Below, one piece after another: positions 7,625 through 21,105 of a DNA stretch of 64,000 nt; within the stretch, counting starts at the first letter, position 1; the number at the start of each line of letters is the position of its first letter. The DNA is from Giardia intestinalis (Eukaryota), in the NCBI GenBank assembly GCA_000002435.2, contig CM018792.1, one strand, 5' to 3'. The position numbers and the translations under genes are program-made. The notes under the pieces were generated by a model. The model was not told the origin of the DNA, did not search any database, and worked only from the letters and a program-made list of their open reading frames with translations.

Positions 7625-9562
7625 TCAGCTTGGATACTTTTCATTGAGCTTCTTCTGTGCCTCCCACTCCTTCACCAACTTCTTGTATCGGCTTTTTGGT
7701 ATGGGCAAAGGATTACCGTCAGGCCCCGTCTCGGCCAAGTGAGTGGGAATCCCACGCTCATCAAAAGCTGAGAACTCCACGTTCTCTAGAAACATCTTCT
7801 CGGCTGGAATTAGGGCCTTTTCGCGCTCTAAACGCTGCTTCTCAAGCTTTTCCTGCTGCACCTTCTCTTGTTGAAGCCTTTTGGCTTCTGCTAAATCCAG
7901 TTCTCTTTGGCGTTGGACCTTCCACTCCTCAACGTTTATCGGCTTAATATAAGACTCCTTGTCTGCATCTTCGATAGCAAATCCTGTCAATGGTAGGTGC
8001 TCATCTCTGAGCCTGTCACACAACCCTAGAAGCATCTTCTTTAGAGTCTTGGTATCTGTCTCAGCAGTATTAGTGGTTGAGGCCATCAATAGATCCTTTA
8101 TTTCTCTCCTGAAGTTACAGACGACTCTAGCGACTTGCAAGGCGTTTTCTGCCGTTGAAGTTTCACCTCTTGCATACGAGAAACCCATAATTGAGAGGAC
8201 ATGTACAATTTTATCCCGTGCATTAGATAGGAGAAACGTGCTGACCTGCCTGCCTTCTGTCTGGCATGCAAAGATGTATGCCTTGCAGTTATCGATCAAC
8301 AACATCACATGACTCATAGCGGAAACAATGTTTATATCGTTGCGGAAGGCCGTATCCACGTTGGAGAGGAACTCTATGGTCTGCGCTTCAAGAGCCTCTT
8401 CCGTTGTACTGTATCTAAGGTTCTTGATTGGCTCAGAAAGCTCTTCCTCGTGCTGAATGATCTGGCGACAATTGGACAGGAAACTGGTGATTTTTTTGTC
8501 CTTGGCAACTGCAGCATCCATCATCGAGATGCTGTAATCCAGCGACGCGCTGTATGGAACCATGCAAAAAAGCATGCGAACTTGGTTTGCCGTAAAGATG
8601 CTAAGAATCTCACGCACGGTTTTAAAGTTCTTTTTAGACTTTGACATAACATCCCCTGCTATCTTCAAGTGCCCACTGTGCAGGAAGCATCCTATCATGT
8701 TCTTTTTCCCGGCCCAGGTCTCCAACTGGATCAGCTCATTGTCGTGGTGAGGGAATTGTAGGTCACAGCCACCCAAGTGGAGATCAAACGCCCCTCCAGT
8801 GTCCTTCCCTAACACAGCTGCCGCCATCGCGGAGCACTCTATGTGCCAGCCAGGCCGTCCGGGCAGGGTGATCAGTTCCGAGACAGCGCCATTTTTGTGG
8901 GAAAAGGTTGCATCCCACTTGGCATCCTCTGGTTCTGTTTCTTTCCATGCCTTCCAGAGTGCGAAATCTGAGGCTGAGCGCTTTTCTGAGACGCGATTCT
9001 TGCTGTCCATCCCATCTGCATTCTGGATCAGGAGCTGGAGCTCGTCAGAACTACTGCCCAGAGGCCGAAGCTTGGGATAGGAGTACCCAGCGCTGCGGGC
9101 TGCGGCCACGTCAAAGTAAACAGACCCCGCGCTCACATATGCAAATCCGTTGTCCATGATCTTCTGGATGAAGAGAATGATGTCGGCCATGTACTCGGTT
9201 ACGCGAGTGACCACTGTGAAGGGACGAACTGAGAGGGTGTGCATGTCGGAAAGGAACTCCTGCTCGTATTTACGGCAGATGTCGAAGATGGACGAGCCCC
9301 TCTCTACGGCGCGGGCGATGATCTTATCGTCGACGTCCGTGATGTTGCACTGGTAGCGAACGCGCAGCCCGAAGTAGTCCTCGAGGATGCGGCGGACGAC
9401 GTCGAAGGTGACGTATGTGCGCGCGTGGCCCAGGTGGGTCGAGTCGTAGACCGTGGGGCCGCAGATGTAGGCCAGGACTGTGCTGGGTGCGTGGGTCCTG
9501 AGCTCCTCGAGGCGCCCGGTGAGGCTGTTGGTGAGCCAGACGGAGGTCGGGAACGCGGCCAT
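7625..9562 (-). CDS. Cysteinyl-tRNA synthetase, class I, 645 aa, with a C-terminal K/E-rich extension
   Basis: HLGH variant of the HIGH motif ([17 protein letters not shown]) and KMSKS-like motif ([10 protein letters not shown]). Overall CysRS-like. ATG at 9560-9562 in the context gataaATG. Confidence 0.9.
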
Positions 9563-9587
9563 TTATCGGCGCCGGGCGGAGGCAAAA

Positions 9588-9659
9588 AGGGCCTGACCGG
9601 ATTTGAACCGATGACCACTCGGACTGCAGCCGAGCGCTCTACCCCTGAGCTACAGACCC
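9588..9659 (-). tRNA. tRNA-Cys (anticodon GCA), with U73 discriminator
   Basis: Minus-strand sequence GGGTCTGTAGCTCAGGGGTAGAGCGCTCGGCTGCAGTCCGAGTGGTCATCGGTTCAAATCCGGTCAGGCCC-T. The acceptor stem has 7 bp, counting one GU pair. D stem GCTC/GAGC; anticodon stem CTCGG/CCGAG with loop CTGCAGT; T stem ATCGG/CCGGT with loop TTCAAAT. Confidence 0.85.
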
Positions 9660-9722
9660 CTGCTGCGAGCCGGAAGGGATGAACATGCATCCTCGTGTAG
9701 CTTTGTGGCTCTTCCGAAAGCA

Positions 9723-10151
9723 ATGGCGTTCCAGACCCTCGACGCGATCAACGAGCTGGCCGCGCAGGCCGCCCGGGTGGCCGGTCCGGCGCAGCCCCCG
9801 CCGAAGGCCCCGCAGCTCGCAAGCCGGGCCTGCGACACCCCCGGGACGGCCGAGGAGACAGACAACGAGGACCTCGACGACGTCCCGGCCGGCGAGCTCG
9901 AATGCAAGGTGTACAGCGAGGAGCATCGGAAGGCCGTTCGGAAAGAGATACAGCGGACCATCAAGAGCGGGATCGTCATCACCATCATCAGCGTCGTCAT
10001 GGTCCTCGTCCTCACCTGGTTCATTGTAAGTAGATTCCCGCTGGTCCTGGTCATCGTCTGGGCCTCTATGACCGCCGTCCTCACGATCCTTGGTGTGGCT
10101 GCCTGGATATGGGTCTGTGCACGGTTCAAAAAGGCACGTGCAGAGACATAG
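9723..10151 (+). CDS. Small membrane protein with two predicted transmembrane helices, 142 aa, GC3-rich N-terminus
   Basis: The ORF-track start at 9705 is GTG; the first ATG is at 9723. Helices IVITIISVVMVLVLTWFIV and LVLVIVWASMTAVLTILGVAAWIWV. Strong GC at third positions in the first ~80 codons. Confidence 0.5.
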   Translation: MAFQTLDAINELAAQAARVAGPAQPPPKAPQLASRACDTPGTAEETDNEDLDDVPAGELECKVYSEEHRKAVRKEIQRTIKSGIVITIISVVMVLVLTWFIVSRFPLVLVIVWASMTAVLTILGVAAWIWVCARFKKARAET

Positions 10152-10290
10152 CCTGGCGCGCTCTTATGGAAATAGAAACAGTTCGGCAAGTAAACAGTTG
10201 TTAGCAAGGCATGTATGTTCATGGTTCCATCGGGTAAACAGGGCATGTAGTGTACACGTTCTTAAAAGCTAATTCTCGAGTGCCTTGTTT

Positions 10291-11496
10291 ATGACCGAAT
10301 GCCTGGAGAGTAATGAATACTGTATTTGCACGCCAACAGCAGATAATAGCGTAGTTATATGTAAGTGCAAGGAGGGATATGTTAGTAGAGACAACCAGTG
10401 CTACAGCAAAGAATGTTATGACAGTCTCACAGACAGCTTTTGTGGAAACTTAGGCTTTGCTACATGCGATAATAGTGCACAGAAGTGTAACTGTGGCAAT
10501 ACAGGCCTTACTCTAATGTCCTTTCATGGGCGATGCGTAACAGAGAATTGTTTAATTGGAAAAGAGCCTAGCCGGACTGAGTGTTGGAATAGAGGGTACT
10601 GTCAAATTAACTTAGCTGGAGGGATATGTCGTTGTTACTCTGCATACTTAAACGACACTGGGTGTACTAAGTGCAATCCAGAAACATCCCTGGAGAAGAA
10701 GGTATCAAATGGAGTTGAGTGCATTCCAAAAACGTGCATGGATAAGGAGAATCCTAGCGTCGATCTTGTATGTAATAACATCGGAACGTGTACTCCCTTT
10801 GTCAACTCAGAGTCAACCATGCTGTACATATGTAAGTGCAATAGCCATGCTTTCAGTGTAGGAGACTCATGCTATCCAAAGGAGTGTGTGATTACAGACC
10901 CTCTTGTCTCCAACAGCCTCACTGTCTGCAACTCAAAGGGATCTTGCGATTTCAAAACAAGTAGATGCAACTGCATCGCACCTTACACAGGAAGATTCTG
11001 CCGGTCTTGCTTACCGGAATATATCCACCAATATATTGCAACCGAGAACGGCTTTCTCTTTCTCTGCGTCCACGAGAACTGCTGGGATGAGTCGCTTAAT
11101 ACGCACTGCAGTGGTCACGGGAACTGTACAATGGATGCCGTGTCTAAGGTCTATAAGTGCTCATGTGAGCAAGGATACAATCTTGTGAAGGGCACGTACA
11201 ACATTTGTGCGTCAAACACCGTCCGTAAGCGTAATCGGCAAGGCTACCTTCTGCTGTCTGACGTCTTGTTTGTCGCGCTCTTTGCCGTGGCCATTCTTGG
11301 AATAGGTGTATATCTCCTTGTGAAGCTTTTGTCTGAAAAGAAGGCCAAGCGAGACCATGAGCTTTACATCCATCAAGAGAAGATCACAATAGCAAGGAAT
11401 CTCCATAATGATTTGTCATCAGCTAAGCAGGCGTCTGCTCAATCTAGCGTCCTTTCCACTGCCGAGTACATAGCTTTTCAGCGAAGGTACATGTAG
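10291..11496 (+). CDS. EGF-like cysteine-rich membrane protein (tenascin/HCMP-like), C-terminal TM helix plus cytoplasmic tail; no N-terminal signal peptide seen
   Basis: Repeated CxCxxGY/CxxC spacing. TM segment YLLLSDVLFVALFAVAILGIGVYLLVKLL. The ORF-track start at 10285 is TTG; the first ATG is at 10291. Confidence 0.65.
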   Translation: MTECLESNEYCICTPTADNSVVICKCKEGYVSRDNQCYSKECYDSLTDSFCGNLGFATCDNSAQKCNCGNTGLTLMSFHGRCVTENCLIGKEPSRTECWNRGYCQINLAGGICRCYSAYLNDTGCTKCNPETSLEKKVSNGVECIPKTCMDKENPSVDLVCNNIGTCTPFVNSESTMLYICKCNSHAFSVGDSCYPKECVITDPLVSNSLTVCNSKGSCDFKTSRCNCIAPYTGRFCRSCLPEYIHQYIATENGFLFLCVHENCWDESLNTHCSGHGNCTMDAVSKVYKCSCEQGYNLVKGTYNICASNTVRKRNRQGYLLLSDVLFVALFAVAILGIGVYLLVKLLSEKKAKRDHELYIHQEKITIARNLHNDLSSAKQASAQSSVLSTAEYIAFQRRYM

Positions 11497-11636
11497 TGCT
11501 CACACTGTATGTCAGCACCTCTGTTAGGTTCTTCCTGTTTCAGTTTAGTTAGTAAATTAATATGCCTTCAGCGTCTGTACAGCTTGCACAGTGGATTTCT
11601 TATCCTTGGCCAAGTCTCAATTAAATCAATAAGCTC

Positions 11637-12743
11637 ATGGGCATAGTTGAGCAAATAGCTGAGGTAAAGACTGAGATGGCACGTACCCAAAAGAACAAGG
11701 CCACAGAGCATCATCTAGGACGCCTGAAGGCCAAGCTTGCGCGACTGGAGAGTCAGCTCATCAGCGAGGTCACAAAGAAATCTGGAGGAAAGGGGTCTGG
11801 ATTTGATGTTGTTAAGCAGGGACAAGCTAGAATTGCACTCGTTGGGTTCCCATCTGTGGGGAAAAGCACCTTTCTCACGCGGTATACCAACGCGGAGTCT
11901 GCATCAGCAGCCTATGAATTCACCACTCTTACCTGTGTTCCAGGCACGATGGAGATAAATGGAGCGCCAATACAGATTCTTGACCTCCCAGGAATCATCG
12001 AGGGGGCCGCCACGGGCCTAGGGAAAGGACGACAGGTGATTGCAACCGCTAGAACAGCAGACGCCATAATAATGATGCTTAGCGCATGCAACGCAGTCAA
12101 GGAGAGGCGGATCCTTACAAAGGAGCTAGAGTCTATGGGAATCCGTCTGAACAAACGCCGACCAAGCATTGAACTACGCCCAGCCTCAATGGGGGGTATA
12201 CAGGTGCTTTCGGACAATGTATTGACCGTCCTAGATCACGACACAATACGGGCCACTCTTGCAGAGTATAAAATCCACAACTGTCAGGTGCTTCTCCACT
12301 GCGATGCAACCGTCGATGACCTAATTGACGTAGTAGAGGGCAACAGAGTTTATATGCCGTGTATCTACGCTATCAACAAAATTGACATGGTAAGTATTCC
12401 CGCTGCCGAGTACTATGCAAAGCAGCCGGACACCGTTGTTATTTCAGCAGAGTGCGATCTCAATGTCGATTACCTGAAGCGAATTATCTGGCAGCGGCTG
12501 CAGTTAGTACGCATCTATACCAAGAAGCGGAACTGTCCGGCAGATCTTAGTCAAAAGGAAGCGGTTTTTCTCAAACAAGGAGATACAGTCGAGAAGCTTT
12601 GTGCAAATATTCACAATGATATGGTATCCAATTTTTCGTATGCAATGGTGTGGGGTAGAAGTGCCCAACACTGTCCTCAGCGAGTCGGAAAAGACCACAA
12701 GCTAGCCGACGAAGACGTTGTCCAGATAGTTTTGAGAAAATAG
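11637..12743 (+). CDS. Developmentally regulated GTP-binding protein (DRG, Obg family), 368 aa
   Basis: G1 motif GFPSVGKSTFL, G3 DLPGIIEGA, C-terminal TGS-like region. The N-terminus MGIVEQIAEVKTEMARTQKNKATEHHLGRLKAKLA is typical of DRG. Confidence 0.9.
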   Translation: MGIVEQIAEVKTEMARTQKNKATEHHLGRLKAKLARLESQLISEVTKKSGGKGSGFDVVKQGQARIALVGFPSVGKSTFLTRYTNAESASAAYEFTTLTCVPGTMEINGAPIQILDLPGIIEGAATGLGKGRQVIATARTADAIIMMLSACNAVKERRILTKELESMGIRLNKRRPSIELRPASMGGIQVLSDNVLTVLDHDTIRATLAEYKIHNCQVLLHCDATVDDLIDVVEGNRVYMPCIYAINKIDMVSIPAAEYYAKQPDTVVISAECDLNVDYLKRIIWQRLQLVRIYTKKRNCPADLSQKEAVFLKQGDTVEKLCANIHNDMVSNFSYAMVWGRSAQHCPQRVGKDHKLADEDVVQIVLRK

Positions 12744-12799
12744 CATAAGCAGGATCAACCAGAACGCCCACGGCTCCCTTCTGCTCCTGGTGACGCACT

Positions 12800-12806
12800 A
12801 TTTACT
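12800..12806 (-). terminator. Putative Giardia-type poly(A) signal AGTAAAT overlapping the EB1 stop codon
   Basis: The minus strand reads cAGTAAATag with TAA as the stop codon, matching the AGTRAAY consensus. Confidence 0.4.
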
Positions 12807-13518
12807 GATGATACTCCGCATACAGAATATCCTCTATCTTCTTCACGACACTCTTAATGTAGAACGGAGAGTCTTCTGGCTCTGCAATCTCCACTTGTGT
12901 CATAAGTTCGTTCATTTGATCCATATATATCTCTATTTCATGCAACTTATCAAAGTAAAATTGTGACTCTAGCTGACCCTTTGCAATTTGACGACGTAAG
13001 TCCTCAAGCTCCTTAGAGTCAATTGAGGGCCCGGACGTGCTTGAGGCCTTGGGGTTCTGCATGGATGCAGCGGTGCTGCCTGACCTATTTCCTGGTTTTG
13101 ATGTTTTAGTAACAGCGTTGGCAGATCCAGATTCTGTAGCACCAGACTTGGATCCCTTGTAATTTTGGTCAAAGAACCACTTGAACCATTGGAAGAACTC
13201 GAAGTTGTCCATGTACTTCCCTGTGACTAGCTTATTGACGTCAATGCCCTTATCTATATTGTTACGACTCAAAACGTCCTGTATGATCTTAAAATTTTCT
13301 GACCTTTCCCACTCGTTGATAGCATTCATGCGAACACGATGCATGTTCACCTGTCCCGGATAAACAAGATTCAGGGCCATACAATAGTGGTGTCCCGATG
13401 CCAGGTCCTCAACTTTCTTGACAGGCTCATTAAGCAATTCTGATATCCACTTGAGCAAGGAGACGCGGCCTACAAAGTAGCAGTCAGACACATTTCCGGG
13501 TGCTTTTACCGGCGGCAT
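12802..13518 (-). CDS. EB1 microtubule plus-end binding protein, 238 aa
   Basis: Calponin-homology domain LLKWISELL...YCMALNLVYPGQVNMHRV...GKYMDNFEFFQWFKWFFDQNY and a coiled-coil EB1 C-terminus. The ORF-track start is TTG; the ATG is at 13516-13518. Confidence 0.9.
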   Translation of the reverse strand: MPPVKAPGNVSDCYFVGRVSLLKWISELLNEPVKKVEDLASGHHYCMALNLVYPGQVNMHRVRMNAINEWERSENFKIIQDVLSRNNIDKGIDVNKLVTGKYMDNFEFFQWFKWFFDQNYKGSKSGATESGSANAVTKTSKPGNRSGSTAASMQNPKASSTSGPSIDSKELEDLRRQIAKGQLESQFYFDKLHEIEIYMDQMNELMTQVEIAEPEDSPFYIKSVVKKIEDILYAEYHQ

Positions 13519-13576
13519 CAAGCGTGAATTTAAATTTTGAGCTTTTACTTACGTTTCTACCCAACTTAGCTCACGC

Positions 13577-20001: not shown

Positions 20002-21105
20002 ATGTATAATGCCAATCCAAAGCCTTCACAGCAGGGTGGAGCCCGCGAAAGCAGAGATTCTAGGGATGTGCGACAGCAGTATATCTTCCTCAACATCATC
20101 GGAAGCGGCTCCTTCGGGAAGGTCCACAAGGTCCAGTCCAGGACGAACGGGCGGATCTTCGCGTGCAAGGAAATCGACTACGCCAAGATGAGCGAGAAGG
20201 AGAAGAAGCTCCTCGTCCACGAGGTCAACACGCTCAAGGAGCTCAGCCACGAGAACATCGTCTCCTACATCGACCGCTTTGTCGAGCGCGAGAACGCGAA
20301 GATGTTCATCGTCATGGAGTACTGCGAGAATGGAGACCTCGCAAAGTACATCAAGCGGCACAAGACAGACAGGCGCTACATCGCTGAGGAGAAGATCTGG
20401 TCTGTCTTTGTCCAGCTCCTCCATGCCCTTAACTATTGCCATAGCATCCATAGTGAAGACGAGTCAGGTGTCCACAAAGTTATCCACCGGGATATAAAGC
20501 CCGGTAACGTGTTCCTCACTCAAGATGGCTCCATCAAGCTGGGAGACTTTGGTCTCTGCCGTACCCTCGGAGAAGATTCTGTGGCCCAGACAAACGTCGG
20601 CACCCCCCTCTACATGGCCATAGAGGTCCTCCAGAAGCAGTCCTACACAGAGAAGGCAGACATATGGTCCCTCGGCTGCGTCATCTACGAGCTCTGTGCC
20701 CTGCAGCCCCCATTCGTGGCATCTAACATAGAGTCCCTCAAGACGAAGGTTAAGCAGGGTGCACGCCCTGCCATACCGTCTCACTACTCTAGCGATTTGT
20801 CAGCTGCAATCGACTTAATGCTCAACCCCAATCCTTCAGCACGACCATCTGCAACAGATATCCTTCAGCACAGTCGTATCATTGAGATGAATGAGAGAAT
20901 AAAAGCTATGCCTGCATATGCTGCACAGGCGCCGCCTGAAATACCAAAGAGTGCTCCACCAGGCGGTGGACATGCCCAACGTGAACGTGAACTTCGTGAG
21001 TGGGAAGAACGCCTGAACACGAAGGAGCAGTCCCTACGAGCACGTGAGGAGCACGTTGACCGCACACTAGCAGCTCTGAACGCCGGAACATATAAAGGCT
21101 ATTAA
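20002..21105 (+). CDS. NEK-family serine/threonine protein kinase, 367 aa
   Basis: GSGSFGKV, HRDIKPGNVFL, DFGLCR, GTPLYMAIE. The NEK-like signature is DIWSLGCVIYELCALQPPF. Confidence 0.9.
   Translation: MYNANPKPSQQGGARESRDSRDVRQQYIFLNIIGSGSFGKVHKVQSRTNGRIFACKEIDYAKMSEKEKKLLVHEVNTLKELSHENIVSYIDRFVERENAKMFIVMEYCENGDLAKYIKRHKTDRRYIAEEKIWSVFVQLLHALNYCHSIHSEDESGVHKVIHRDIKPGNVFLTQDGSIKLGDFGLCRTLGEDSVAQTNVGTPLYMAIEVLQKQSYTEKADIWSLGCVIYELCALQPPFVASNIESLKTKVKQGARPAIPSHYSSDLSAAIDLMLNPNPSARPSATDILQHSRIIEMNERIKAMPAYAAQAPPEIPKSAPPGGGHAQRERELREWEERLNTKEQSLRAREEHVDRTLAALNAGTYKGY

Follow-up and report, generated by a model that had tools for sequence, protein, structure and literature searches.

Several described systems bring a tRNA or its gene together with the expression of a second gene. 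In Saccharomyces cerevisiae, tRNA genes transcribed by Pol III exert position effects on Pol II promoters only tens of bp away; one such effect, tRNA-gene-mediated (tgm) silencing, is a repression that requires TFIIIC, condensin, and nucleolar clustering. In Firmicutes, the T-box, a leader RNA of ~200-300 nt, binds uncharged tRNA in trans and by this logic ties synthetase expression to the cognate tRNA. A third arrangement is that of Yarrowia lipolytica, whose dicistronic Pol III units have a co-oriented tRNA gene immediately before a 5S rRNA gene, no internal terminator, and a small RNA as the downstream product (PMC2566860, cited in PMC3369914).

In Giardia intestinalis, a tRNA-Cys(GCA) gene immediately precedes the gene for its cognate enzyme, cysteinyl-tRNA synthetase (CysRS). 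Literature searches found no published description of this adjacency. The question is whether the two genes are functionally connected or are simply neighbors in a very small amount of intergenic DNA.

Anatomy of the locus

The window is the whole stretch of G. intestinalis WB DNA that was analyzed, 64 kb in length. Its features around the tRNA gene are as follows.

7625..9562, minus strand: gene for cysteinyl-tRNA synthetase (class I, 645 aa), with its ATG at 9562..9560, identified by ORF translation and PF01406
9563..9587, minus strand: tRNA-to-CysRS spacer of 25 nt, between the discriminator base at 9588 and the A of the ATG at 9562
9584..9588, minus strand: T5 run in the sequence that begins at the discriminator base; expected Pol III termination signal
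9588..9659, minus strand: tRNA-Cys(GCA) gene, 72 nt, without intron, identified by ARAGORN and Rfam RF00005
9660..9722, no strand assigned: divergent spacer of 63 bp, from the 5' end of the tRNA to the ATG of the 142-aa gene
9723..10151, plus strand: ORF of GL50803_14046, a hypothetical membrane protein of 142 aa and the divergent neighbor
9000..10000, no strand assigned: GC spike (0.59-0.66 per 500 bp), centered on the tRNA and spanning the 5' ends of both flanking genes

ARAGORN reports one tRNA in the 64-kb window, a tRNA-Cys(GCA) at 9587-9660 on the minus strand. The Rfam tRNA family, RF00005, matches 9659..9588 (-) over its full length (model positions 1-71 of 71) with 64.7 bits (E=8.7e-12), relative to a gathering score of 29, and no other Rfam family was found in the window. 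In the cloverleaf (-25.9 kcal/mol), 21 of 21 pairs are standard, 19 of them Watson-Crick and two G.U, and they make up an acceptor stem of 7 bp (with one U.G), a D stem of 4 bp, and anticodon and T stems of 5 bp each. The anticodon loop, CUGCAGU, carries the anticodon GCA, and the last base of the Rfam match is the discriminator U73, at 9588. Both the GCA anticodon and a discriminator U73 are CysRS identity elements. The plain MFE fold of the sequence (-29.7 kcal/mol) is not a cloverleaf; it was set aside because the covariance model and the count of pairs give the cloverleaf, and non-cloverleaf MFE folds are common for unmodified tRNA sequences.

The gene does not encode CCA; instead, TTTT follows the discriminator, as in a nuclear-type tRNA gene. 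An A-box-like TAGCTCAGGGG and a B-box-like GGTTCAAATCC are present. In Giardia, homologues of TFIIIC, TFIIIA, and B'' have not been found, and there are only TBP and BRF (PMC3369914); the role of the A and B boxes of this gene may be just that of tRNA structure. When the body of the tRNA was used as a 57-mer to scan metagenomes, there were no matches. A 25-mer matched four short contigs; these carry tRNA-Gly/tRNA-Cys pairs of bacterial appearance and are uninformative.

The downstream gene encodes a protein whose residues 26-351 match PF01406, the tRNA-synt_1e catalytic domain, with an E value of 7.8e-89, and whose translation contains both signature motifs, HLGH (the HIGH motif) and VMSKS (the KMSKS motif). 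The protein is identical to G. intestinalis WB XP_001706067.1/AAG37230.1, which is annotated as a cysteinyl-tRNA synthetase; it is already in public databases, and both the tRNA-Cys gene and the CysRS gene are ordinary. A 691-aa CysRS call that spans the tRNA in one Logan assembly (P0017) was rejected as a start-codon artefact, as the other four lineages have the downstream ATG. At the start of the gene, GATAA (9567..9563) together with the ATG forms an A-rich, initiator-like context. A preliminary description of this DNA had proposed a cleanly folding tRNA-Cys(GCA) with a 7-bp acceptor stem and U73, upstream of and co-oriented with CysRS, and these assignments are borne out by the agreement of ARAGORN, Rfam, and the pair count, by the shared minus strand, and by the PF01406 match and database identity. 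It had also placed the 3' end of the tRNA 26 bp from the ATG; the closeness stands, and the distance is corrected to 25 nt. Its attribution of the DNA to Giardia is right.

Between CysRS and its divergent neighbor, the intergenic DNA measures ~160 bp in all, of which tRNA-Cys takes up 72 bp. The 142-aa protein encoded by GL50803_14046 has no Pfam match above threshold, and the six homologues found are all in assemblies of the G. intestinalis complex. Beyond it lie the genes for a Cys-rich EGF-like membrane protein of 401 aa and for a DRG-type GTPase and then, on the opposite strand, EB1. A gene for a PsiE-family protein lies downstream of CysRS.

In the 12.6-Mb WB genome, 4963 protein genes and 65 tRNA genes are counted, and intergenic distances have a mean of 470 bp and a median of 81 bp (PMC7641422, Table 1); in G. 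muris, the median distance is 37 bp (PMC7641422). Given the median of 81 bp, a gap of 25 nt is ordinary for the Giardia genome. What is less ordinary is the identity of the neighbor. By rough arithmetic from the published counts, rather than by permutation of the annotation, a random gene order would produce ~65 x 2 / 5000 = 0.026 neighboring pairs of a tRNA gene and its cognate synthetase gene per genome, and about a quarter of this, ~0.0065, would be co-oriented pairs with the tRNA upstream. To find a cognate pair in any one genome is thus uncommon, although this instance was picked post hoc among many windows and many possible coincidences.

Conservation in the G. intestinalis complex and its limits

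The five members of the G. intestinalis complex that were compared all have the tRNA-Cys/CysRS arrangement. They are WB, P15, and three Logan assemblies (L002, L005, and L006); the CysRS proteins of these assemblies are 82-86% identical to that of WB and to each other. The distance from the tRNA to the CysRS ATG is not the same in each:

WB (64-kb window): 25 nt
P15, assemblage E (L012): 25 nt
Logan assembly L002: 15 nt
Logan assembly L005: 39 nt
Logan assembly L006: 35 nt

The tRNA itself is identical at 72 of 72 positions in the five lineages, versus 36-66% identity in its flanks, and this comparison of sequences indicates that tRNA-Cys is probably under purifying selection. In each lineage, a run of T4-T5 has its first base at the discriminator or one position beyond it, and, as in Pol III genes generally, this run is presumably the terminator of tRNA-Cys. 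In each, too, the CysRS start codon has either ATAA or GAAA directly 5' of it. The T-run and the ATAAATG/GAAAATG are the only conserved parts of the spacer among the five lineages; the remainder cannot be aligned. Over the 25-nt spacer, identity is 65.5% between WB and P15 and 44% between WB and L002, which is not above that of other intergenic DNA. Indeed, the two spacers that flank the tRNA are 64-66% identical between WB and P15, as against 76-85% in the four neighboring intergenic regions of the block. A conserved element that might couple the two genes was sought in the tRNA-flanking spacers of the five lineages, and none was visible.

The divergent side of the tRNA presents a different picture. 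Here, the length of the 63-bp spacer is invariant in the five lineages and the alignment is free of gaps, while its sequence is just 53-64% identical. All of the others compared, that is, four intergenic regions and the tRNA-to-CysRS spacer, do change in length. A possible conserved motif ~30 nt before the tRNA (CA.A..ATG) was discarded, since it is broken in P15 and, with n=5, cannot be distinguished from chance. The GC spike at tRNA-Cys is seen in five of five lineages (0.6-0.72 per 200 bp). In WB, GC3 in CysRS is 0.92 in the first 100 codons versus 0.59 in the remainder, and elsewhere in the window, just one ordinary gene exceeds a GC3 of 0.8 at its 5' end. Four-fold sites within the first 50 codons of CysRS show a pairwise divergence of 0.29, versus 0.42-0.58 elsewhere.

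Together, the fixed 63 bp, the GC spike, and the low four-fold divergence could conceal a constraint. These local features may reflect a requirement for a certain spacing between back-to-back initiation complexes, or they may come from a hotspot of GC-biased repair or recombination at the tRNA gene. Alternatively, the low divergence at the 5' end of CysRS may arise simply because a strongly skewed base composition caps how different such sites become. None of the three features alone argues for a coupling that is specific to cysteine.

Outside of the complex, CysRS loci were located by protein search, and their flanks, ~2-5 kb upstream depending on the contig, were scanned for tRNAs with ARAGORN and with Rfam at the gathering threshold. 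In the flanks that were fetched, no tRNA was found near CysRS in G. muris (L001) or in a G. muris relative (L004) whose CysRS is 87% identical to that of G. muris. The same was true of three Giardia-like lineages (L003, L007, and L010), which group with Giardia or close to it and have the standard genetic code, and of Spironucleus salmonicida (L008) and Hexamita inflata (L009).

The order of the neighboring genes indicates where the arrangement may have come from. In G. muris, just 17 bp separate the stop codon of EB1 from the downstream ATG of CysRS. EB1 is oriented in the same way relative to CysRS in G. intestinalis, but there, three opposite-strand genes and the tRNA lie in between. In a contig from the G. 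muris relative (L011), which ends at the DRG gene, the upstream neighbor of DRG is CFAP91, and no tRNA was found at this DRG locus. The proximity of EB1 to CysRS in G. muris and the presence of CFAP91 beside DRG in its relative identify the junction as a lineage-specific rearrangement point. The tRNA/CysRS junction is then one edge of the rearrangement by which the G. intestinalis complex differs from G. muris; we infer its direction to be an insertion in the former. Thus, in the ancestor of the complex, a block consisting of the genes for the DRG GTPase, the 401-aa protein, and the 142-aa protein, with the tRNA at its edge, would have been inserted between EB1 and CysRS, and the arrangement would afterwards have been inherited along with the remaining local gene order. 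Within the complex, the order of neighboring genes is the same on both sides wherever the contigs reach, and consequently, the linkage of tRNA-Cys and CysRS within it is expected from shared local gene order alone. Among the lineages compared, no linkage kept beyond shared gene order and none of independent origin was found; it is confined to the G. intestinalis complex.

Probable separate transcription units and other readings

With these gene identities, this anatomy, the phylogenetic distribution, and the lack of constraint on the spacer, we consider it likely that tRNA-Cys and CysRS are independently transcribed genes that lie end to end in a hyper-compact genome and that their cognate pairing is coincidental. 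In this model, Pol III would transcribe tRNA-Cys and end within the T4-T5 run that starts from the discriminator, leaving a trailer of at most a few nt. Pol II would start the CysRS mRNA 15-39 nt beyond the tRNA, at the A-rich initiator that overlaps the start codon (ATAAATG), so that the mRNA would begin within GATAAATG. Transcription of CysRS would then require nothing from the tRNA-Cys gene. We infer the assignment of the two polymerases, as well as the sites of termination and initiation. The presence of the T-run in all five suggests that the tRNA unit ends before the CysRS start.

The initiator that this model needs is of a kind already described for Giardia. The 5'-UTRs of this organism are mostly <20 nt, and TSS-seq has revealed start sites with an AT-rich consensus that spans -5 to +5, e.g. 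AAAATAAAATG, and no motif in the 150 nt upstream of them (PMC3792122). The supplements of that paper have no gene-level entry for the CysRS locus (PMC3792122). The resemblance of the conserved ATAAATG to such an AT-rich initiator suggests that CysRS needs no upstream DNA.

Another hypothesis holds that the tRNA-Cys gene is part of the CysRS promoter, such that the output of CysRS mRNA tracks the transcription of tRNA-Cys. Either the actively transcribed Pol III gene or a TBP/BRF complex on it would keep the 15-39 nt downstream open, or it would dampen Pol II initiation. The position of the tRNA is suited to this, as it sits where any upstream promoter element of CysRS would, with only 15-39 nt of other DNA in between. 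Such a hypothesis would also give a place to the conserved GC spike and the reduced synonymous divergence at the CysRS 5' end, both of which are unexplained, and the chance expectation for the pairing is low (~0.03). Moreover, the adjacency has been kept in five lineages, and the flanking DNA has diverged to 36-66% identity while the arrangement survived the deepest splits sampled in the complex, which counts against coincidence; however, shared local gene order alone predicts conservation inside the complex. Furthermore, Giardia Pol II genes have no upstream motif and apparently need only the AT-rich initiator (PMC3792122), and the variable length of the spacer (15-39 nt) argues against a fixed architecture that links the two genes. 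Finally, the CysRS loci of the other diplomonads compared have no tRNA in the fetched flanks, which speaks against any general need of CysRS for one, and CysRS of G. muris works with the stop codon of EB1 17 bp upstream. On this evidence, we regard such positional coupling as unlikely.

The two genes might also be transcribed together. In this case, a single precursor would run through the tRNA into the CysRS ORF, and RNase P and RNase Z would excise the tRNA and release the mRNA, in the manner of dicistronic transcripts with a tRNA in other organisms. The precursor would be made either by Pol III that reads through or by Pol II that starts at the divergent promoter upstream of the tRNA; Giardia promoters are reported to be bidirectional (PMC1885649). 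The very short distance between the tRNA and CysRS fits such a precursor, as does the GC-rich start of the CysRS ORF, which has no T-run in the 80 nt read. The T-run behind the tRNA is just T4 in P15 and L005 and is possibly leaky there, but a T-run is present in five of five lineages and is characteristic of a separate Pol III unit. In addition, the CysRS ATG lies in a conserved, A-rich context that resembles an initiator, and an mRNA released by RNase Z would have no cap. We regard co-transcription as a very unlikely explanation of this locus.

The preliminary description had left the choice between regulatory coupling and a coincidence of genome compaction. Conservation that goes with shared gene order, and that brings no extra constraint on the spacer, favors coincidence; regulatory coupling of tRNA-Cys and CysRS has no support here and is of low probability. 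Likewise, positional conservation, on which the same description had made its claim depend, extends to five lineages of the G. intestinalis complex and stops there, with G. muris, the other relatives, Spironucleus, and Hexamita having no tRNA in the flanks that were fetched.

It is very doubtful, then, that tRNA-Cys has been co-opted as a promoter or chromatin-opening element of CysRS, or is co-transcribed with it, so that a single site sets the supply of both the tRNA and its enzyme. If co-option were true, the invariant 63 bp and the GC spike would be the footprints of a shared Pol II/Pol III initiation hub. Were the pairing functional, it would be one of the rare eukaryotic examples of a synthetase gene linked in function to the gene for its tRNA, and it would open a way to study how promoter DNA is shared by the two polymerases in a eukaryote without TFIIIC. 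Coupling of this kind would be useful to an organism with a very cysteine-rich surface proteome. As the evidence stands, the value of the locus is modest. If the two genes are independent units, it illustrates how little upstream DNA a Giardia Pol II gene needs, here 15-39 nt beyond the probable terminator of a Pol III gene, and it marks a point of rearrangement between G. intestinalis and G. muris.

Comparison with known systems

The locus resembles yeast tgm silencing in its geometry, with only tens of bp between a Pol III tRNA gene and the start of a Pol II gene. It is unlike it in two respects: Giardia has no detectable TFIIIC (PMC3369914), and CysRS is an essential housekeeping gene. The likeness to the T-box of Firmicutes is one of logic, as a coupling would tie the expression of the synthetase to the cognate tRNA. 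In its anatomy, the locus differs: no T-box or leader was found at CysRS, where the spacer of 15-39 nt is largely unconserved and too short for a leader and where Rfam recognizes no family besides the tRNA.

The dicistronic units of Y. lipolytica share with this locus a tRNA gene that immediately precedes a second gene in the same orientation (PMC2566860, cited in PMC3369914). There, the tRNA is followed by a small RNA, with no terminator in between; in Giardia, it is followed by a T4-T5 run in five of five lineages and then by a 1.9-kb protein gene. The closest counterpart is therefore the ordinary nuclear tRNA gene beside a protein gene in a compact genome, with which this one shares a canonical structure, the lack of an encoded CCA, a T-run, a neighbor within tens of nt, and minimal 5'-UTRs. 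It differs from that common situation in one feature, namely that the neighbor here is the cognate synthetase.

Spacing between tRNA-Cys and the divergent 142-aa gene

The distance from the 5' end of tRNA-Cys(GCA) to the divergent 142-aa gene (GL50803_14046) is 63 bp in all five lineages of the G. intestinalis complex, and sequence identity across this spacer of constant length is only 53-64%.

The 63-bp spacer in the five lineages:
Window (WB), 9660-9722
P15 (L012), 3938-4000
Logan assembly L002, 4851-4913
Logan assembly L005, 575-637
Logan assembly L006, 721-783

All the remaining intergenic regions that were compared, unlike this spacer, have changed in length. The constant 63 bp may reflect a spacing constraint on back-to-back start sites. 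The Logan gene call for CysRS in L006 (P0017, 753-2828, 691 aa) runs through the tRNA from a start 30 nt ahead of it. That start was rejected as a start-codon artefact; the other lineages place the true start at L006 891.

Beyond the 142-aa gene, there is a gene for a cysteine-rich protein, two genes away from tRNA-Cys and CysRS:
Window 10291-11496, + strand, EGF-like, Cys-rich membrane protein, 401 aa
The closeness of a cysteine-rich gene to the cysteine tRNA and its synthetase is probably a coincidence.

Base composition around tRNA-Cys and elsewhere in the window

A spike in GC content at window 9000-10000 has the tRNA gene at its centre and takes in the 5' end of the gene on each side. The spike at tRNA-Cys is common to the five lineages (the window, L012, L002, L005, and L006). 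Within WB CysRS, codons 1-100 have a GC3 of 0.92, versus 0.59 for the remaining codons. At four-fold sites in CysRS, divergence over codons 1-50 is 0.29, versus about 0.5 elsewhere. A strong rise in GC3 at the 5' end is seen in just one further ordinary ORF in the window, 20002-21105 (+), where codons 1-100 have a GC3 of 0.82 and the rest 0.58.

A separate 4-kb island at window 900-4900 is 74-76% GC, while the remainder of the window is 45-50% GC. It holds two protein-like ORFs:
876..2450, - strand, 524 aa
2463..4781, - strand, 772 aa, GC3 0.95
This island is not rDNA; it has no match in Rfam.

The CysRS neighbourhood in other genera and species

In G. muris (L001 4255-5001), EB1 directly adjoins CysRS, with a gap of 17 bp, whereas in G. 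intestinalis (window 9562-13521) the two are separated by the tRNA together with three genes on the opposite strand. DRG in a G. muris relative (L011) adjoins CFAP91 instead. The EB1/CysRS neighbourhood marks a synteny break between G. intestinalis and G. muris.

At the CysRS loci of Spironucleus salmonicida (L008) and Hexamita inflata (L009), translation of the called genes with table 11 differs from the database protein. Hexamitinae read TAA and TAG as Gln, and the mismatch is consistent with this code.
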